Assembly: GCA_049318825.1 (NCBI GenBank)
Contig: JBMOFM010000013.1
Location: forward strand, 21,847-85,846
Length of the DNA stretch: 64,000 nt
Source of the DNA: Alphaproteobacteria bacterium
GTDB lineage: Bacteria; Pseudomonadota; Alphaproteobacteria; JBMOFM01
Direction: 5' to 3'
Position numbers and translations under genes: made by a program. The notes below the pieces were generated by a model. The model searched no databases and had not been told where the DNA came from. It saw nothing but the letters and a program-made list of their open reading frames with translations. Positions 18,142 to 55,693 of the stretch are shown here, piece after piece (position 1 is the first letter of the stretch; each line of letters starts with the position of its first letter).

Positions 18142-20475
18142 ATGTCTTTGCCATCCGCTTTGCCTAGCCATCATGCTGCCGCTATGAGTAATATGTCTCA
18201 ACAACAATCATGGTTGCGTGGCCTTAATGCCCCACAGCGGGCAGCCGTAGAGCATGGTGAAGGCCCATTATTAGTATTGGCTGGTGCTGGTACGGGTAAA
18301 ACTAGGGTGCTCACCAGCCGTATTGCTTTTTTGATGAATAGAGACCGGCTCTATGATAATCAATGGCTAGCGGTTACCTTTACCAATAAAGCCGCACAGG
18401 AAATGAAACACCGCTTAGCAAATATGTTACAGCGACCCGTGGAAGGAAGTTGGCTTGGCACCTTTCACTCTTTATCGTTGCGCATGTTGCGCCGTCATGG
18501 TGAAGCGGTTGGACTGCATAGTGATTTTACGATTTTGGATGCTGATGACCAATTGCGCCTGATCCGTCAGATTTTGCAGGCGGCCAATATCGATGAAAAG
18601 AAAACCCCGCCGCGCATGGTGATGGCGATTATTAGCCGGTGGAAGGATAAGGGCTTATTACCAGAACAAGTGCAAGAGCATGATAAAATCATGGTGCGGC
18701 TCTATCAGCATTATCAGCAGCGTTTAGCGCAGCTTAATGCGTGTGATTTTGGCGATTTGATGCTGCATGGTGTTAATTTACTAGCGCAAAACCCAGAAAT
18801 TTTACAGCGTTACGGCGAAAATTTCCGCTATATTCTGGTGGATGAGTATCAAGATACCAATGCCGTGCAATATCGCTGGTTATCGCTATTGGCTTCCAAC
18901 CACCATAATATTTGCTGCGTGGGGGATGATGACCAATCTATCTACGGTTGGCGCGGGGCTGAAATTGAAAATATTTTACGGTTTGAAAAAGATTTTCCGG
19001 GCGCAGTAACCATTCGTTTGGAACAAAATTACCGTTCTAGCCAGCATATATTATCAGCAGCGGGTGGTTTAATTGCCCATAATCAAGGCCGTTTGGGGAA
19101 AACCTTATGGACAGAAGATCCCCATGGTGTGCCCGTACAGTTACAAATAACCAGCGATAGCACCGAAGAAGCCCGTTTTGTGGGCGATGAAATTGAAAAA
19201 TTAGAAAAGCAAGGGGTTAGCCTCAATCACATTGCCGTATTGGTGCGGGCGGGCTACCAAATGCGGGAATTTGAGGAACGCTTCATTCATATTGGTTTGC
19301 CTTATAGGGTGATTGGTGGCCCACGCTTTTATGAACGGCAAGAAATTAAAGATGCGTTGGGGTATCTCCGCCTTATTCGCAATAAGGCGGATGATATTTC
19401 TTTCGAGCGGGTGATTAACGTGCCGCGCCGTGGTATTGGTGCAACAACCTTGCAACAATTGCATATGGTGGCCAGAGAGCGGGGCATCAGCCTTTATGAT
19501 GCTGCGGCTTCAATGTGTGAAGAAGGAACCATTGGCACAAGGGCAGGTAAACCAATTCGCCAGTTTTTACAGCAATTAGAGATGTGGCGGCAGAAATCGG
19601 CCAACTTATCCTTAAAAGATTTGCTGCAGATGGTGCTGGATGAATCGGGATACACTGCCATGTGGCAGCAGGAAAAAACGCCAGAGGCTGAGGGCAGGTT
19701 AGAAAATTTGAAAGAAATGAGTGCCTTTATGGCTGATTTTCCGAGCTTAACTGATTTTCTGGAGCATGTGGCCTTGGTAAGTGAGGTAGAAAAAGGCGAT
19801 CAAACGCGCGCTCAGGTGAGTATTATGAGTTTGCATGGGGCTAAAGGCTTGGAATTTGACGCGGTGTTTCTACCGGGGTGGGAAGAGGGGGTATTTCCCA
19901 GCCAGAAAAGTTTGGATGAAAATGGCCTGAAAGGCGTAGAAGAAGAGCGGCGCTTGGCGTATGTGGGGCTTACCCGTGCCAAAAAACTGGCCTATGTGAG
20001 CATGGCGCGGCGGCGGCGTACCTATGGCTATTGGGGCGATTCTATTCCCTCACGTTTTGTGATGGAATTGCCTGAAAAACATATAGAACGCCGTAAGGAA
20101 ATAACTGCCTCTTATGGCAGTGGGTTTTCTTCGGGTTTCTGGCAAAATGATAAAATTGATGATGATTATGAAGAAGGGGCAAAAATTTATACCCCTTCTA
20201 ACGCCCCCAATCCCTTTATGAGTGGGAATAGTGGCAGTAGTTGGCAAAAATCCCCGCCGCGGCCATTGCGCTCTTCGGCGCGGGCGGTGGATGTGGAGCC
20301 GCGCCCAACCCCTGCTGCAGTGCGTCCGCAAACTTCCATGCGCTTGGGCGAGCGGGTGTTTCATGAAAAATATGGTTATGGCGTGGTTGTGGTGCTGGAT
20401 AAGGATAAGGCCGAAATAGATTTTGGTGATAGCGGCGTTAAAAAAATTATGTTGGGCTATTTGAAGAAGGGTTGA
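18142..20475 (+). CDS. uvrD: ATP-dependent DNA helicase UvrD (DNA helicase II)
   Basis: 777 aa; SF1 helicase motifs (AGAGTGKT Walker A, DEYQDTN, VGDDDQSIYGWRGA, LEQNYRSS, etc.) and UvrD C-terminal domain (GERVFHEKYGYGVV). Confidence 0.9.
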   Translation: MSLPSALPSHHAAAMSNMSQQQSWLRGLNAPQRAAVEHGEGPLLVLAGAGTGKTRVLTSRIAFLMNRDRLYDNQWLAVTFTNKAAQEMKHRLANMLQRPVEGSWLGTFHSLSLRMLRRHGEAVGLHSDFTILDADDQLRLIRQILQAANIDEKKTPPRMVMAIISRWKDKGLLPEQVQEHDKIMVRLYQHYQQRLAQLNACDFGDLMLHGVNLLAQNPEILQRYGENFRYILVDEYQDTNAVQYRWLSLLASNHHNICCVGDDDQSIYGWRGAEIENILRFEKDFPGAVTIRLEQNYRSSQHILSAAGGLIAHNQGRLGKTLWTEDPHGVPVQLQITSDSTEEARFVGDEIEKLEKQGVSLNHIAVLVRAGYQMREFEERFIHIGLPYRVIGGPRFYERQEIKDALGYLRLIRNKADDISFERVINVPRRGIGATTLQQLHMVARERGISLYDAAASMCEEGTIGTRAGKPIRQFLQQLEMWRQKSANLSLKDLLQMVLDESGYTAMWQQEKTPEAEGRLENLKEMSAFMADFPSLTDFLEHVALVSEVEKGDQTRAQVSIMSLHGAKGLEFDAVFLPGWEEGVFPSQKSLDENGLKGVEEERRLAYVGLTRAKKLAYVSMARRRRTYGYWGDSIPSRFVMELPEKHIERRKEITASYGSGFSSGFWQNDKIDDDYEEGAKIYTPSNAPNPFMSGNSGSSWQKSPPRPLRSSARAVDVEPRPTPAAVRPQTSMRLGERVFHEKYGYGVVVVLDKDKAEIDFGDSGVKKIMLGYLKKG

Positions 20476-20488
20476 TAGCCCTCACCCT

Positions 20489-20540
20489 AAAGACAGCTTG
20501 GCTGTCTTTTTCCCCTCTCCCTTAGGGAGAGGGATTTTTT
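20489..20540 (+). terminator. tandem intrinsic terminators downstream of uvrD
   Basis: Hairpin 1: AAAGACAGC-ttg-GCTGTCTTT followed by TTTT. Hairpin 2: CCCTCTCCC-tta-GGGAGAGGG followed by ATTTTTT. Confidence 0.75.
20513..20533. repeat. palindromic repeat copy 1: CCCTCTCCC-TTA-GGGAGAGGG
   Basis: Perfect 9-bp stems; identical stems recur at 22310-22330 with an inverted loop (TAA). Confidence 0.8.
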
Positions 20541-20587
20541 GAGTTCTTTTGATTTTTATTGAGCAATCAAAGCAAAATGGATAAAAA

Positions 20588-21673
20588 ATGAGCGACGAAC
20601 AGTGGTTGAATATGCCTCACTTGCCTTCTTTAGTGATTAAAAATTTTCGCTGCCTTGAAGATTTAACCATTCAAAAGCTGGGGCATGTGAATTTAATTGT
20701 GGGCGCTAATAATTCAGGCAAAAGCACCATTTTGGAAGCTTTAAGGATTTATGCTGGAGAATTAGCAGACTTTAGGTTGTTCTTCGATTTATTATCCGCA
20801 AGAGATGAATTTATTCCCTCTCATTGGTCGGCGCAAACTCATATTGTACAATCTTACCAAGATCATCCTGCTAGGTCTTTGTTTACCAATAGAGCGATAG
20901 AAAAAAATAAAAAAATTGAAATAGGTGACATCAATAGTCTTCAGAATGGCGTGATTGTTGAAGGAGAATTTGAACATTTAGGAGAATTTTATGTTGGCTT
21001 GAAAGTTGTTTCCAAATACAATGGACTTGAAAGGTCTACGGCTGGAATTTCATTGCTTCATTTGGGCTCATATGTTGGAGATAAAAAAGCAACCTCTCCA
21101 TACAAAGATGGTTATGTTTCTTCACAATTGCCTTCAACTGATGACCAGATGGCTTTGTTTGCAGAAATAAATAGAGAATATGGCGATAATCAAATTTTAA
21201 CTGATGCCCTTAAAATCATTGAGCCGCGCATCATCAATGTTTTTTTTGATCCTATTGATCAAATATGTTTTGTAAAGCATCAAGATTTCCAGAAAACCAT
21301 CCCGCTAAAAACCTTAGGCGAAGGGATGATGCGCATATTGCAACTGGCTTTGTTTATCCCTAGAGCGCAAAAAACTGGATTTTTACTGATTGATGAATTT
21401 GAGAATGGTTTATATTGGCGTACGCAAAGCAAAATTTGGGAATTTTTATTTGAAATAGCCAAACGCTACAATATTCAAATTTTTGCGACCACTCATAGTA
21501 AAGATACCATCAACAGCTTTGCAAAAATAGCCCTTTCAAGAAAAGATATGGAAGGGGTATTGATCAGTTTGGATAGAAGTGCCGCAAAAAAGGATAATAA
21601 TAAAATCATCGCCATTGAATATGATGAGGAATCCCTAGCCAATATCATCGAAGATAATATTGAGGTGCGATAA
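20588..21673 (+). CDS. OLD-family/AAA_15-21-type ABC ATPase, ATPase subunit of a split OLD-like two-gene module (AriA/AbiLi-like)
   Basis: 361 aa; Walker A GANNSGKST near the N-terminus, ABC signature-like LGEGMMR, Walker B FLLIDEFENGL, H-loop ATTHS; AT-rich relative to flanking uvrD/prmA; 5-bp gap to the next gene. Confidence 0.8.
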   Translation: MSDEQWLNMPHLPSLVIKNFRCLEDLTIQKLGHVNLIVGANNSGKSTILEALRIYAGELADFRLFFDLLSARDEFIPSHWSAQTHIVQSYQDHPARSLFTNRAIEKNKKIEIGDINSLQNGVIVEGEFEHLGEFYVGLKVVSKYNGLERSTAGISLLHLGSYVGDKKATSPYKDGYVSSQLPSTDDQMALFAEINREYGDNQILTDALKIIEPRIINVFFDPIDQICFVKHQDFQKTIPLKTLGEGMMRILQLALFIPRAQKTGFLLIDEFENGLYWRTQSKIWEFLFEIAKRYNIQIFATTHSKDTINSFAKIALSRKDMEGVLISLDRSAAKKDNNKIIAIEYDEESLANIIEDNIEVR

Positions 21674-21678
21674 CCCTC

Positions 21679-22446
21679 ATGAGTGAAAAAATACTATTGG
21701 TAGAAGGCTTTGCAGATCAGGCATTTTTTAAAAAACTACTTGAAGGTGATGATAATCTGATTATTCACAATATTAGTGTGGAACAACAAGGTGGCAGGCA
21801 GGGTTTATTCAGCGATAAAAAACTTGCCGAACACGTTAAGAAAATTCGTGGAACAAAAATATCAGCGATTGCCATGATTGTTGATGCTGATTCAGGTGAT
21901 AACAATATGGCTGGTTTTCAGCATACAAAAAATATCCTATCTGAAAAATTACAAGAACATGACTATATTTCAGAGCCTGAATTGGTGCCTAATAGTTCGG
22001 GTTTAATATATAAACATAAAGAAGAAGGCATTATTCCTTTTGGTTTATATATTATGCCTAATAATCAAGATAATGGTGAAATGGAAGATTGGTTAGCAAA
22101 GTGCCTTACGCCAGATATTCAACCAATGCTTAAATGTGCTGAAAAAATTGTGCAGAAAGTAGCAAAAAAATTTTCCTCACCATCTTTTAAACCCAATAAG
22201 ATCAATAAAGCAAAAATTTACACCATGTTGGCTTGGTTGCGTGATCCGGGGGTAGAAAGCCATAAGCTGCTTAAAGATAACAAAATTAACCACCAAAGCC
22301 GTCTTTTTTCCCTCTCCCTAAGGGAGAGGGATTTGTCTGTTTCTAAGGTAAGGGGCAGGAATGGCCATATTGGCTGTTGCTGTAATTGCCGGCGGGAAAG
22401 GTTAGAAATTAATGCTAAAAACATGCAACAAATTAAAATGATATGA
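21679..22446 (+). CDS. TOPRIM-like partner protein (DUF4276/RloB- or AriB-like) of the split OLD-family module
   Basis: N-terminus MSEKILLVEGFADQAFF (conserved Glu) and IAMIVDADSGD (DxD) about 60 aa later form a TOPRIM signature. About 210 aa of plausible protein are followed by a tail that reads through a palindromic repeat (SLSLRERD) into low-complexity sequence (GCCCNCRRER), so the C-terminus is probably altered. Confidence 0.6.
   Translation: MSEKILLVEGFADQAFFKKLLEGDDNLIIHNISVEQQGGRQGLFSDKKLAEHVKKIRGTKISAIAMIVDADSGDNNMAGFQHTKNILSEKLQEHDYISEPELVPNSSGLIYKHKEEGIIPFGLYIMPNNQDNGEMEDWLAKCLTPDIQPMLKCAEKIVQKVAKKFSSPSFKPNKINKAKIYTMLAWLRDPGVESHKLLKDNKINHQSRLFSLSLRERDLSVSKVRGRNGHIGCCCNCRRERLEINAKNMQQIKMI
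22310..22330. repeat. palindromic repeat copy 2: CCCTCTCCC-TAA-GGGAGAGGG (inside the 3' end of the TOPRIM-like ORF)
   Basis: Same 9-bp stems as copy 1. It is preceded by TTTTTT and followed by ATTTG, whereas copy 1 has TTTTCC before and ATTTTTT after. Confidence 0.8.
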
Positions 22447-22577
22447 AAATATATTATATGTATTTTCCATGGTCAATATGTTACTTGCTTGTTATCAGCA
22501 TTGGAATAGAGCTATATAGCTAAATAGGGGGGATGCGACTGCAGCACCGCACCCATTTGGGTGCGTGAAAAAATAAC

Positions 22578-22625
22578 TATAATGGCACATAAATAAAAGA
22601 ATTCTTTTATTTATGTGCCATTATA
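22578..22625. repeat. 48-bp perfect palindrome centred on GAATTC, carrying TATAAT on both strands
   Basis: TATAATGGCACATAAATAAAAGAATTCTTTTATTTATGTGCCATTATA reads identically on both strands. It lies between the defence-like module and prmA and overlaps the ORF-track start of prmA. Confidence 0.8.
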
Positions 22626-22678
22626 AATTATTATCAGTCCTCACCACTAAAAGAACCCACTATTATTTTGAGCCATTC

Positions 22679-23638
22679 ATGACGAAGATGCCTACCTCTT
22701 TTAAGCCTTTGCAGCGTTTAATGATTAATTTGCCGGCGGGGTGTGATCCTTCCATGCTGGTGCAAGCTTTAAGTGAAGAAGCCGTGGCGGTTTCAGCCAT
22801 GGAAATTAATGCCGCTGCTCGCCCACCCATGGGTATTGAGGATGAGGAAATTGACTGGCTGAATTATCCAACCGAGATTGAAGCCCTATTCACCAAAAAA
22901 CCAGCCGATCAGTGGTTGCTGCCCTTATTATTTTTATTAGAGGCCAGCACTGGCCATGCGCCCTTGCATGTTGAATGGTTTGAATTGCCAATGACGGATT
23001 GGTTGCAACAGGTATATACGGGTTTTCCGCGCCTGAAAATTGGCCGTTTTGTGATTTATGGTTCGCATCATGCTATACCATCCATGGGCACGGGTTTGCC
23101 GTTGAAAGTGGATGCAGGCATGGCCTTTGGTTCAGGCGAACACCCCACCACCAGAGGTTGCTTAATGGCCTTAGAAAAATTGGCAAAATTTTATCGGCCG
23201 CAATCGGGTTATGATGCTGGTTGTGGCAGTGGTGTTTTGGCCATGGCTATGGTAAGGCTGTGGCATATTCCGGTATTGGGGGTGGATATTGATCCACAAT
23301 CGGCTTTGGTAACCAAAACTAATGCCCGTATTAATCAGCTTTCTCCCTTTATTAAAGCCGATGCAGGCGATGCCAGCACCAAAATGGGGCGGCAGCGTTT
23401 TGATATTATTACGGCCAATATTTTAGCCCGCCCGCTTGTTAAAATGGCACCAAAATTAGCCGCTGCCTTAAACCCTAATGGTTATATTATTGTTTCTGGC
23501 CTGTTATCCATGCAACGCGCTGCTATTTGCCATGCTTATCGCACCCAAGGCTTGCAATTGGCAGGGGAGATTGTTAATGGTGAAAATATTAATGGTGAAT
23601 GGCCAACCCTTATTTTTTGTAACACCCAATCCCGATAA
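22679..23638 (+). CDS. prmA: ribosomal protein L11 methyltransferase PrmA
   Basis: SAM-MTase motifs (VLDAGCGSGVLAMA) and PrmA motif MAFGSGEHPTTRGCL. The start at ATG 22679 (MTKMPTSF) is chosen because the track start at 22613 falls inside the palindrome. Confidence 0.8.
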   Translation: MTKMPTSFKPLQRLMINLPAGCDPSMLVQALSEEAVAVSAMEINAAARPPMGIEDEEIDWLNYPTEIEALFTKKPADQWLLPLLFLLEASTGHAPLHVEWFELPMTDWLQQVYTGFPRLKIGRFVIYGSHHAIPSMGTGLPLKVDAGMAFGSGEHPTTRGCLMALEKLAKFYRPQSGYDAGCGSGVLAMAMVRLWHIPVLGVDIDPQSALVTKTNARINQLSPFIKADAGDASTKMGRQRFDIITANILARPLVKMAPKLAAALNPNGYIIVSGLLSMQRAAICHAYRTQGLQLAGEIVNGENINGEWPTLIFCNTQSR

Positions 23639-25453: not shown

Positions 25454-25514
25454 AACTTGAAATTTATTCTATTTACTGTAATTTGCATTGTATTTTACAA
25501 TAAATAAAATTCTT

Positions 25515-49039: not shown

Positions 49040-49108
49040 CGGAAAACCACCATTCACAAAGGTGGTTTTCATAGAAATATCTTCAAAACAAATGTTTTGA
49101 AGATATTT
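49040..49108. terminator. convergent/bidirectional hairpins between carB and greA
   Basis: Hairpin AAAACCACC-attcacaa-GGTGGTTTT plus a 38-bp perfect palindrome AGAAATATCTTCAAAACA-AA-TGTTTTGAAGATATTTCT immediately 3' of the carB stop. Confidence 0.5.
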
Positions 49109-52100
49109 CTATAGCGCAGCTTTTTTACTTCCTTTGGTATCAATTGCTGCTGATTCATAACGTAAATATTCTTGTAAAGCCATGACGCCCATGGGGTTTT
49201 TGCTTGTTGCTTCAATGGCCATTACCGCCGCCTTGGCACCGGCTAAAGTGGTATAATAGGGGATGTTGTGCATCAGTGCCGTTCGGCGTAGGCTCAAGCT
49301 ATCGGCGGTGGCTTGTGCGCCTTCAGTGGTATTAAACACCAATTGCACTTTTCCATTAATCATCGCATCCACAATGTGGGGGGAGCCTTCTAAAACCTTA
49401 TTCACTGGTTGGGCGGCAATACCGTGCTCGCGTAGAAATACACAGCTACCCTTGGTGGCTAGAATTGAAAAACCCATGGCAACCAAGCGGTTGGCCAATT
49501 CTACCACTTGCGGTTTGTGTTTATCTTTTACCGAAATAAAACATTGGCCTGTCATGGGCAATTTTACACCAGCCCCCAATTGTGCCTTGGCAAAAGCCAT
49601 GGCAAAATCAGCATCCAACCCCATCACTTCACCGGTAGAGCGCATTTCTGGGCCTAAAATTACATCCACCCCAGGGAAACGGTTGAATGGAAATACCGCT
49701 TCTTTCACGGCGACTTGATGACCAACTGGTTTTAGGTCAAAATTTTCCAGTTTTTCACCAGCCATTACCCGTGCTGCAATTTTTGCAATGGGCACGCCCG
49801 TGGCTTTGGCCACAAAAGGCACGGTGCGCGATGCTCTGGGGTTAACTTCCAGAATAAATATTTTGCCATCCTTCACGGCAAATTGCACATTCATTAGGCC
49901 TTTTACCTGCAATGCTCTGGCCAGCAATTCGGTTTGGCTTTTAATGGCGGCAATGGTGGTGCTATCTAGGGTATAGGGTGGCAGGGCACAAGCAGAATCA
50001 CCAGAATGGATGCCAGCTTCTTCAATATGCTCCATAATGCCAGCCACATACACAGCATGGCCATCACAGATGGCATCCACATCCACCTCAACCGCATCTT
50101 GCAAATAACCATCAATTAACACGGGGTTGGTACCAGAAACCTTCACGGCTTGGGTAATGTATCGTTCTAGGCCAGCCTCATCATGCACAATTTCCATAGC
50201 GCGCCCACCCAAAACATAAGAGGGGCGAATAACCACCGGAAAACCAATCTGGCGGGCAACATCCAAGGCTTCAACCCGTGAACGTGCCATACCATTAGGG
50301 GGCTGCCGCAATTTCAGCGAGTGTAATAATTGCTGAAAACGCTCACGGTCTTCGGCCAGATCAATAGCATCGGGCGAGGTACCCAAAATAGGAATACCCG
50401 ATTTTTGTAGTTCATCCGCCAATTTTAGTGGGGTTTGCCCTCCCAGCTGTACAATCACGCCCAATAATGCGCCATTGGCTTGTTCTATGCGGGCAATTTC
50501 TATCACATCTTCAGCGGTTAATGGCTCAAAATAGAGGCGGTTGGCGGTATCGTAATCGGTGGAAACCGTTTCGGGGTTACAATTCACCATAATTGTTTCA
50601 ATGCCTTGCTCTTTCAAGGCATAGGCCGCATGAACGCAACAATAATCAAATTCAATACCCTGACCAATGCGGTTAGGCCCCCCCCCCAAAATTATCACTT
50701 TTTCACGGGTGCTAGGCTCTGCTTCACAAATACTTTTGCTCCAGCGACCTTCATAGGTGGAATACATATAAGCGGTGGGGGCAGGAAACTCAGCCGCGCA
50801 GCTATCGATGCGCTTAAAAACAGGATGCACGGCAAAACCACGGCGGATAGCCGCCACTTCTTCTTCTGTTTGACGGGTGAGCCGCGCCAAGCGGGCATCG
50901 GCAAAGCCCATTGATTTAAGGTTTCTGATGCCTTGTGCTTCGCGGGGCAGGCCTTCTAGGCGTAATTTTTCTTCTTCAGCAACAATTTCAGCAATTTGCC
51001 GTAAAAACCATGGGTCTATACGGCTAGCATCATGCACATCTTCTACGCTAAAGCCATGACGAAAAGCATCCGCCACCGCTAAAATACGCTCAGGGGTTGG
51101 CCGTGCTAAAGCCGCGCGAATAGCATCCCGATCCGTGCTGGTTTGAGGGCTGCGCATAAAACGCTCTAACTCATCAAAACCTTGCAGGCCTGTTTCTAAA
51201 CCGCGCAAGGCCTTTTGCATGGATTCCTTAAAGTTTCGGCCAATAGCCATCACTTCACCCACTGATTTCATGGCCGTGGTGAGGGTTGAATCGCTGCCGG
51301 GGAATTTTTCAAAAGCAAAGCGGGGAATTTTAGTGACCACATAATCAATGCTGGGTTCAAAACTGGCAGGGGTTACTTGCGTAATATCGTTTTTCAGCTC
51401 ATCCAGCGTGTAACCCACGGCTAATAAAGCCGCCACCTTGGCAATGGGGAAACCCGTGGCCTTAGAGGCCAAAGCAGAAGAACGGCTAACCCGTGGGTTC
51501 ATTTCAATAACCACCATTCGGCCATCCTTAGGATTTAAGCCAAATTGTACGTTTGAACCGCCCGTATCCACCCCAATTTCACGCAATACCGCCAAAGAGG
51601 CGTTACGCATTTTTTGGTATTCTTTATCGGTGAGGGTTAGGGCAGGGGCAACGGTGATGGAATCGCCCGTATGCACGCCCATGGGGTCGATATTTTCAAT
51701 GGAGCAGATAATGATACAATTATCATTTTTATCGCGCACCACCTCCATCTCATATTCTTTCCAACCCAATACCGATTCTTCAACCAGCACTTCGCCCACA
51801 GGGGAGGCTGACAACCCGTGAAAAATAATTTCTTCATATTGTTGGCGGTTATAAGCAATACCCCCGCCCGTACCACCCAAGGTGAAAGATGGGCGGATAA
51901 TAGCAGGCAACCCTACCATTTCTAAGGCTTTTTTTGCGCCTTCCATATCGCGAATTACCACGCTTTTCGGGCTTTCTAGCCCTATTTTGGTCATGGCTTC
52001 ACGAAATAAATGCCGATCTTCTGCCTTATTAATGGCCTCACGGCTGGCACCAATCAATTCAATATTCAAGCGTTCAAGCACGCCCATTTCTGCTAATTTC

Positions 52101-54702: not shown

Positions 54703-54784
54703 AAAAGGCCGCAGAACCTATGGGGTTTTGCAGCCTTTTTGCTTTAATATTATGGTCATTCTATCAGTGGAATGACCATAATAT

Positions 54785-55693
54785 TTATGGTTTAGCTGCT
54801 GGTGCAGCGGGTTTTAATAGCTCTGCTGGTGTTTGTACGATGGCGCTGCCACCACCAAAATTAAGAACGGCTGGTACTTGGCCATTCCATTTTTGTGTAA
54901 GAAAATAGGCAGCTACGTTCTCTGAGCCAATTTCTTTGACTAAGGTTCTATAAGCTTCGGCTTGTTTTTGGGTAGCGTAAGCGGTAGCATCGGCATTAAT
55001 TTTTATAGCATTAGCATCGCCCTGCGCTTTAATGGCCGTTGTTTTTGCTTCCACTTCAATTTGTTGTTGTTCTGTTTGTTTTTGAGTAAGTACAGCCTTA
55101 GCTTGTGCAGCCTGAGCGATTCCCTGTTCAAAACCCTGTTCAAACTTAAAATTGGCTACCTGTGTGGTCACAATTTCCAGCCCCAACAATTTAGAAGCTT
55201 CGCGCTCCACTTCTACTGTAACATCTTTAATAATCTGTTCACGATTAAAGGCAATATCTTGCGCATTATTTTTGCCCAGCACAATTTTCATGGCATTGGT
55301 GGCCGTGCTTTGCAATGTTTGTTGATAATTGGGGTTTCTTTCCAGAATTTCTATTACTTTGTCTTGCGGTATTCTGTAAATAACCGTTAACTCAACATGG
55401 ATTTTTTGGTTATCCTTAGTGTAGGTTTCCAAATTACCAATTTCTAAATGCTGTTGGCTTAAATCCATGGCTTTCACCGAACGCCATGGCAGCTTAAACG
55501 AAAGACCGGGTTGTCTGAACTCTGAAGGCTTAAGGGTAACTATTCTACCAAATTCGTAATCCACACCCACTTCTGTTTGCTTAAGTGTTTGTACCGACGT
55601 AAAAATAGTTGTGAGCGTTAGGCCGCCCCCAATACCTGCTACAGCAATATTGCCCCAGTTCCACTCATTCTCATCGTTACGAAGAAAACCCAT
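54785..55693 (-). CDS. SPFH/band-7 (HflC/prohibitin-like) membrane protein
   Basis: 302 aa; N-terminal TM anchor, SPFH domain, Ala/Gln-rich coiled-coil C-terminus. Confidence 0.75.
   Translation of the reverse strand: MGFLRNDENEWNWGNIAVAGIGGGLTLTTIFTSVQTLKQTEVGVDYEFGRIVTLKPSEFRQPGLSFKLPWRSVKAMDLSQQHLEIGNLETYTKDNQKIHVELTVIYRIPQDKVIEILERNPNYQQTLQSTATNAMKIVLGKNNAQDIAFNREQIIKDVTVEVEREASKLLGLEIVTTQVANFKFEQGFEQGIAQAAQAKAVLTQKQTEQQQIEVEAKTTAIKAQGDANAIKINADATAYATQKQAEAYRTLVKEIGSENVAAYFLTQKWNGQVPAVLNFGGGSAIVQTPAELLKPAAPAAKP

Follow-up and report, generated by a model that had tools for sequence, protein, structure and literature searches.

The intrastrand-triplex motif TMECO, earlier named BoxC or PIT, has been known for decades and has been counted 3610 times across 262 proteobacterial genomes (Holder et al. 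2015, PMC4666352); its copy number ranges from tens to more than 100 in Enterobacter and E. coli. The E. coli copies are intergenic, and rearrangement at their loci, which have been called hot spots, is significantly above that at control sites, a statistical link to local genome variability for which no mechanism is known (PMC4666352). Earlier work observed neither promoter nor terminator activity, no mobility genes are associated with the motif (PMC4666352), and the same sequences have been described as a G-quadruplex/hairpin switch near the 3′ ends of operons (Kaplan et al. 2016, PMC5100583). Here we describe a 64,000-nucleotide (nt) stretch of contig JBMOFM010000013.1 from a metagenome-assembled genome (MAG) of an alphaproteobacterium, hereafter the window, in which two copies of the palindromic hairpin of this motif bracket an AT-rich cassette of two genes between uvrD and prmA. 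The cassette encodes a predicted defence system related to AbiL, PARIS (AriA/AriB) and the class-2 OLD/Gabija nucleases. The second hairpin lies in the 3′ end of the downstream cassette gene (gene 2) and is best read as a partial duplicate of the element resident downstream of uvrD. Neither of the two studies (PMC4666352, PMC5100583) describes, for this motif, a gene cassette bracketed by a 37-nt direct duplication.

The palindrome, CCCTCTCCC-TWA-GGGAGAGGG, occurs exactly twice in the window, at the two positions and with the inverted loop given in an earlier note on this DNA (Table 1). The loop reads TTA in copy 1 and TAA in copy 2, such that the two hairpins are exact reverse complements over 22 nt, while in direct register the central loop base is the sole difference within the hairpin. 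With up to three mismatches allowed, no third match is found in the 64-kb window, and none arises in 100 shuffles of it. Further CCCTCTCC or GGAGAGGG hairpins and other arm-like sequences are likewise absent from the rest of the window, and CCCTCACCC occurs in it a single time. The earlier note had taken the duplicated unit to be 21 bp in size; the duplication stands, but a repeat search extends the unit to a direct repeat of 37 nt (20501-20537 and 22298-22334), with 34/37 identical positions and a longest exact direct run of 14 nt. The left edge of this repeat coincides with the start of the 3′ arm of a further hairpin (hairpin A), and the left flank of the palindrome within the 37-nt unit is GCYGTCTTTTTY. 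A longer repeat was rejected, as the next 10 nt match at 5/10 positions in a T-rich, non-significant gapped alignment. A CCACC upstream of copy 2, considered as a relic of the CCCTCACCC arm, was judged a chance match and overlaps a conserved codon of gene 2. Copy 2 is situated inside the open reading frame (ORF) 21679-22446, as had been noted, where it is read as SRLFSLSLRERDL; its TAA loop is a stop codon in one frame, and gene 2 reads an open frame.

Table 1. Features of the uvrD-prmA locus in the 64,000-nt window (aa, amino acids; GC, G+C content).
Feature	Position	Strand	Basis or remark
uvrD, 777 aa, left flanking core gene	18142..20475	+	Pfam UvrD-helicase 8e-92, UvrD_C 2e-69; GC 0.479
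Complete composite, BoxC/PIT/TMECO-like with inner hairpin, whalefall-1-like architecture	20478..20535	-	Rfam, fold
CCCTCACCC, third arm of composite, 3 nt past uvrD stop	20479..20487	+	Sole copy in window; part of the minus-strand pattern
Hairpin A, AAAGACAGC-TTG-GCTGTCTTT, then TT	20489..20509	+	Perfect 9-bp stem; second loop of composite
Direct repeat copy 1	20501..20537	+	Repeat search, 37 nt
Palindrome copy 1, loop TTA, then A+T6	20513..20533	+	Intrinsic-terminator-like, for uvrD
Gene 1, ABC-type ATPase	20588..21673	+	Pfam AAA_15/AAA_21/SMC_N; NCBI model from GTG 20633, 346 aa
Gene 2, family-homologous part, DUF3226/OLD-like TOPRIM, residues 1-210	21679..22308	+	Pfam, PADLOC, alignment
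Direct repeat copy 2	22298..22334	+	Hairpin A 3′ arm, spacer, palindrome, ATTT; no third arm
Gene 2, read-through tail, residues 211-255, non-homologous	22309..22446	+	Starts in palindrome copy 2
Palindrome copy 2, loop TAA, then ATTTGTCTGTTTCT	22310..22330	+	Terminator-like site for cassette
AT-rich non-coding spacer before prmA	22335..22678	.	GC 0.353 versus 0.364 in pooled native intergenic DNA
48-nt perfect AT-rich palindrome	22578..22625	.	Fold z-score -9.2; in the style of other intergenic palindromes in the genome
prmA, 319 aa, right flanking core gene	22679..23638	+	Pfam PrmA 1e-51; NCBI model with same start

The pattern of the palindrome is that of the motif of Holder et al. 2015 (PMC4666352), and as such it is the hairpin of the known, widespread BoxC/PIT/TMECO motif and not a locus-specific terminator or attachment (att) site. 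Both copies comprise the C-rich arm CCCTCNCCC, a loop within the 3-6 nt range and the G-rich arm GGGNGAGGG, the 9-nt arms (CCCTCTCCC, GGGAGAGGG and GGGTGAGGG) are identical to those of the motif, and the first loop is 3 nt long. The element is also placed like the motif, just past the 3′ end of a gene or operon, and the locally variable DNA reported for it fits the foreign cassette adjoining it here. Unlike the motif, neither copy has a 3-nt second loop followed by the second GGGNGAGGG arm. The second loop of copy 1 spans 25 nt and contains a 9-bp hairpin of its own, namely hairpin A, such that the minus strand at 20479-20533 fits CCCTCNCCC-N3-GGGNGAGGG-N25-GGGNGAGGG where the inner hairpin is accepted as the second loop, while copy 2 lacks a third arm. 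On the plus strand, this composite element reads CCCTCACCC, inner hairpin and CCCTCTCCC-TTA-GGGAGAGGG; it has a fold z-score of -4.2, and hairpin A is present in both the minimum free energy and the centroid fold. Copy 1 is thus a complete three-arm composite, of which copy 2 is a fragment.

Exact copies of the 21-mer were identified in at least 120 unrelated metagenome contigs (125 instances), from organisms with a GC of 36-71%; the counts for this set hold among the matches listed. A third arm (CCCTCACC upstream or GGTGAGG downstream) is located at most 16 nt away in 88/125 instances, and 74 of the 120 palindrome loci contain one or more strict matches to CCCTCNCCC-N3-6-GGGNGAGGG-N3-GGGNGAGGG. 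The earlier note had also suggested a genome-wide REP-like (repetitive extragenic palindromic) element; an abundant REP is not apparent in the 64-kb window, which contains two copies, both at the uvrD-prmA locus, and this also sets it apart from described occurrences of the motif. A phage origin of the palindrome was considered and rejected, with one carrier among 2.9 million viral contigs and none with the flanked version.

The sequences adjoining the palindrome (12 nt to the left and 4 nt to the right) were compared across 242 oriented metagenome instances. The two window copies share 10/12 left and 4/4 right flank bases (14/16 in total), whereas the best values elsewhere among the matches listed are 8/12 left and 11/16 in total, both of which belong to one unrelated locus. 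The shared left flank comprises a T-run and the 3′ arm of hairpin A, which is specific to this locus, and no further resemblance to either junction was found. As the flank identity of the window copies exceeds the maximum observed elsewhere, copy 2 is best read as a partial duplicate of the resident composite element, generated by local duplication.

An exhaustive HMMER search recovered 526 relatives of gene 2, typically 215-230 aa in length, none of which aligns past residue ~211 of the query. The family ends in a conserved F..L..WL...F segment with a near-invariant tryptophan, which is missing from gene 2. Its product matches the family up to ...KDNKINHQSRLF and then continues as SLSLRERDL through the palindrome, with 45 unrelated residues in all. 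In the AlphaFold (AF2) model, the per-residue confidence (pLDDT) is 66-95 over residues 1-210, including 83-95 in the last four 10-residue blocks before residue 210, and falls to 46-58 in the tail. The breakpoint is placed between 22291 and 22309, at the left edge of repeat copy 2, and the replacement of the native TOPRIM C-terminus proposed in the earlier note is borne out by the comparison with homologues. No trace of the lost helix is detectable downstream in any frame. Displacement of the native end by a simple hairpin insertion was tried and rejected, as the best candidate, GKGQEWPYWLLL (22347-22382), raises the score of a family hidden Markov model by 2.6 bits, a gain equalled by 30% of random 12-mers; the native end is gone and not merely displaced. 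Window positions 21044-22607 recur without any difference in an independent Logan assembly (L001; 1564 nt), and the junction of gene 2, copy 2 and the downstream DNA is therefore not a peculiarity of one assembly. With the C-terminus of a candidate defence nuclease overwritten, one may ask whether the system is still functional.

The two cassette genes are encoded on the same strand with a gap of 5 nt. Gene 1 matches PDC-M38A in PADLOC (PDLC04611; e-value: 5e-94), as well as AbiLi over the full AbiLi length (e-value: 1e-47) and AriA (e-value: 1e-27), and its best match in the PDB is the OLD-family nuclease 6p74 (e-value: 8.7e-13). Gene 2 contains a DUF3226 domain (e-value: 5e-37) with an N-terminal OLD-like_TOPRIM match (e-value: 4e-4), and matches PDC-M38B in PADLOC (PDLC04623; e-value: 8e-43). 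Its TOPRIM residues E9, D69 and D71 do not vary across an alignment that includes 26 homologues. Both component models match, and the ATPase-DUF3226 pair recurs as a lone unit flanked by core genes in Psychrobacter, Methylovulum and a metagenome contig (L202-L204), where stop and start codons overlap, the DUF3226 gene encodes 226-231 aa and no recombinase is present. As such, the cassette is assigned to the PADLOC candidate defence system PDC-M38, a split OLD/AbiL/PARIS-like ATPase and TOPRIM pair with a predicted anti-phage role.

The cassette resembles PDC-M38 in the order of an ABC ATPase gene followed directly by a small TOPRIM-type gene, in the strong hidden Markov model matches of both, in the retained TOPRIM glutamate and DxD residues, and in its location alone between core genes, as in the Psychrobacter and Methylovulum units. 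It differs in that gene 2 lacks the family C-terminal helix, with the profile match ending at position 205/219, and has the unrelated 45-residue tail instead. The partner gene in PARIS is the DUF4435 protein AriB and that in AbiL is the RloB-like AbiLii, whereas gene 2 is a DUF3226 protein with no PADLOC match to AriB and none to AbiLii, even though gene 1 matches AbiLi. The similarity of gene 2 to AriB in the PDB is weak (family profile e-value: 1.3e-3, over the first 49 positions). A Foldseek comparison of the gene 2 model against the PDB likewise gave weak matches only, including the OLD C-terminal region (e-value: 0.044) and AriB at rank eight (e-value: 0.11).

The description of the cassette as AT-rich holds, as the GC between the repeats is 0.352, compared with 0.479 for uvrD and 0.46-0.47 for prmA and pepP. 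The cassette genes have a GC of 0.36, the lowest of the 45 ORFs in the window, the others ranging from 0.39 to 0.50. The closest homologue of gene 1 is ~40% identical, and the best homologues of both genes, at ~40% identity, are mostly gammaproteobacterial. Together, the base composition and the distant homologues provide good support for a cassette that is compositionally foreign and horizontally acquired.

On balance, we consider it somewhat more likely than not that the local partial duplication is tied to the insertion of this cassette. Foreign DNA with the ATPase and TOPRIM genes would have been joined to the chromosome at the composite hairpin element downstream of uvrD in an illegitimate, hairpin-associated event, with one boundary exactly at the hairpin loop. 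The joining may have duplicated the 37 nt that start where the loop of the inner hairpin meets its 3′ arm and end 4 nt beyond the palindrome, fixing the right end of the foreign DNA and placing the cassette directly downstream of the resident element. In the process gene 2 would have lost its stop codon and the ~15 codons before it, such that the ORF reads through copy 2 into 45 unrelated codons. The duplicate could have been produced by fill-in of a staggered break, by template switching at the hairpin, or by Campbell-type recombination on a short repeat in a circle with the same 37 nt, and nothing in the data distinguishes between the three. The earlier note had envisaged integration into the uvrD terminator or capture by recombination between hairpin copies. 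What survives of this is a local duplication beside a foreign cassette, while the hairpin belongs to a known family and is not specific to this locus.

Several observations weigh against this reconstruction. The cassette is devoid of a recombinase, the two genes being the only ones between the repeats, and no bracketing repeats are found around the homologous cassettes L202, L203 and L204; a rule that PDC-M38 cassettes are bracketed by repeats was accordingly rejected (0/3). The three mismatches within the 37 nt mean that the event is old or that the parents were not identical, and the palindrome family is ubiquitous, such that the second copy could have come independently. In a crude GC-boundary test of 47 metagenome instances against 78 control intergenic gaps, no general link of the palindrome to foreign DNA was observed (p = 0.66), and in view of this result and of its presence in at least 120 unrelated contigs, the palindrome by itself is not a marker of inserts. 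No terminator activity was seen for PIT elements in E. coli (cited in PMC4666352). Finally, no empty site or alternative allele was found for the locus, the nearest relatives being 54% (UvrD) and 44-51% (PrmA) identical.

The two copies could instead be independent members of the family, copy 2 having arrived with the donor cassette or having inserted itself into the 3′ end of gene 2, with the likeness of the flanks due to a T-rich context. The motif is pan-bacterial, and the palindrome is found in frame inside genuine housekeeping ORFs (21/125 instances lie inside ORFs among the matches listed), which makes an independent entry into gene 2 more credible. Furthermore, the unrelated locus L127/L086 has 8/12 left and 3/4 right flank bases in common with the window copies. 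We nevertheless regard such an origin as unlikely: no other instance among the matches listed reaches 14/16, the common left flank is the 3′ arm of a hairpin specific to this locus, and copy 2 is missing the third arm that most instances carry. A simple insertion would, in addition, have left the native C-terminus of gene 2 downstream in some frame, where none is detectable.

Alternatively, the repeat may be local and yet not the footprint of entry. Foreign islets flanked by att sites similarly lie between direct repeats of their target, just downstream of a conserved gene, and the target-derived repeat is present at both ends of the cassette. They differ in that no integrase or other recombinase is encoded here, the repeat is imperfect (34/37), and the repeat truncates gene 2, part of the cargo, whereas a clean site-specific event would have left it intact. 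A larger att-flanked island, once with its own recombinase, might have been trimmed by a deletion that began within gene 2 and reached the right-hand repeat at its edge; otherwise, a later break at the end of gene 2 could have been repaired by a 37-nt copy of the element 1.8 kb upstream. Such histories would account jointly for the missing integrase, the truncation of gene 2 and the position of the repeat edge at a hairpin loop, which is a typical endpoint of deletions and template switches. However, no remnant of other island genes is present, the spacer at 22335-22678 containing no recognisable coding remnant and no similarity to any compared locus, and two events are needed where one suffices; this explanation is thus also doubtful, and an insertion-linked duplication remains our preferred reading.

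An assembly artefact, i.e. a chimera joined at the repeated hairpin, is conceivable for a MAG in which the left junction of uvrD, copy 1 and gene 1 has no independent confirmation, but is highly improbable given that L001 repeats the C-terminal part of gene 1, gene 2, copy 2 and ~160 nt downstream without difference, the 14-nt shared direct run is too short to collapse a de Bruijn graph, and both flanks are syntenic partners in other alphaproteobacteria.

The locus represents a fresh instance of two known kinds, a PDC-M38-type cassette and a BoxC/TMECO-associated rearrangement, and is tidy rather than exceptional. It documents concretely, at the level of sequence, how a hairpin of this kind can be involved in rearrangement, albeit as a single anecdote without comparators and of modest value. 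The 21-nt identity of the hairpins across very distant bacteria led us to a broader conjecture, in which they serve as portable recombination anchors for integrase-less defence cassettes that are captured, excised as circles and re-inserted beside core genes, the duplication being the footprint, or in which the palindrome is an actively copying element. The latter may also cover the in-frame insertions into housekeeping genes. We hold this conjecture to be rather improbable, and the support for recombination anchors does not extend beyond this one locus.

The predicted fold is obtained for both palindromes, and T-rich sequence follows each of them. The stem of copy 1 comprises 9 bp, with seven GC pairs, followed by ATTTTTT, while that of copy 2 comprises 10 bp followed by TTTGTCTGTT. 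Judging from these terminator-like features, transcription of uvrD most likely ends at copy 1 and its T6 run, and that of the cassette operon at copy 2 and its T-rich tail. A tandem terminator had been proposed downstream of uvrD; the terminator-like hairpins are indeed there, but they form one composite of the pan-bacterial BoxC/PIT/TMECO repeat family and not a tandem.

The minus strand of the composite also aligns end to end with the 56-nt Rfam model of the whalefall-1 RNA motif (RF01762; Weinberg et al. 2010, PMC2864571), sharing the CUCUCC/GGAGAG hairpin, the second 9-bp hairpin and AGGGUGAGG. The score of 27.6 bits (e-value: 1e-5 to 2e-4; model positions 1-56 covered) is below the gathering threshold of 37. 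As none of 12 other metagenome inner-hairpin instances matches the model, the resemblance is treated as a lead only.

The organism is phylogenetically isolated. Its best UvrD match in 185,579 species genomes (one per GTDB species) has 54% identity, PrmA identities peak at 44-51% in a set of 5.8 billion proteins, and exact look-ups of the UvrD, PepP, PrmA and gene 1 proteins returned no match. In 17 alphaproteobacterial loci, prmA follows uvrD on the same strand, with the aligned segments at most 30 nt apart in 9/17. Where the ORFs were read (L018 and L002), the uvrD stop codon touches or overlaps the prmA start codon. The two genes are also adjacent in L012 and L032, with pepP next, as in the window. 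This distant adjacency appears consistent with an insertion in the window; it does not date the event, nor is the junction invariant. In the Emcibacter-like loci L036 (10230-12517) and L038 (10225-12501), three conserved minus-strand genes (~257, 250 and 220 aa) are located between uvrD and prmA, and the junction has thus been opened more than once in the Alphaproteobacteria.

The residence of the palindrome within coding sequences may merit a separate look. The 21 instances referred to above lie at least 50 codons inside ORFs of at least 250 aa, and the ten of them compared with Pfam have domain matches on both sides of the palindrome, identifying them as real genes in which it is read in frame. 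Their products comprise a UvrD-family helicase, MnmG, an adenylating (AMP-binding) enzyme, an aldehyde dehydrogenase and a CCA/poly(A) polymerase, as well as a Mur ligase (two copies), GlyS-beta, FemAB and an E2 acyltransferase. The corresponding positions are L132:795-815, L090:9788, L173:1882, L119:11702, L102:1263, L193:673 and 1352, L162:1485, L127:5249 and L199:3746. In L132 the palindrome is read as ...LSLRER..., in the same frame as in gene 2. The E. coli literature on the motif describes intergenic copies only, in contrast to these in-frame instances in metagenome housekeeping genes.

Rickettsia palindromic elements are reportedly short palindromic repeats that are tolerated in frame inside ORFs. 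The palindrome in the metagenome housekeeping genes and in gene 2 resembles them in this in-frame residence, but differs in sequence family and taxa, and in gene 2 the C-terminus has been replaced and no internal segment has been added.

A strict TMECO match, CCCTCGCCCCTCCGGGGAGAGGGCCGGGGTGAGGG, was also identified inside the uvrD gene of another alphaproteobacterial MAG (L050:10067-10101), in a linker ~170 nt before the stop codon. It is the only TMECO hairpin in 80 uvrD loci (1.2 Mb). L050, L132 and the window make up three uvrD-associated cases, which may be a coincidence.

Long perfect AT-rich palindromes are found in four intergenic regions of the window, at 22578-22625, 49071-49112, 54746-54785 and 61135-61165, with stems of 22, 19, 16 and 12 bp, respectively, and each is unique. 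The first of these is situated just upstream of prmA and has TATAAT at its outer ends. Directly after pepP, the window furthermore encodes a 1570-aa ORF (25488-30200) with a TTG start codon and a low GC of 0.40.

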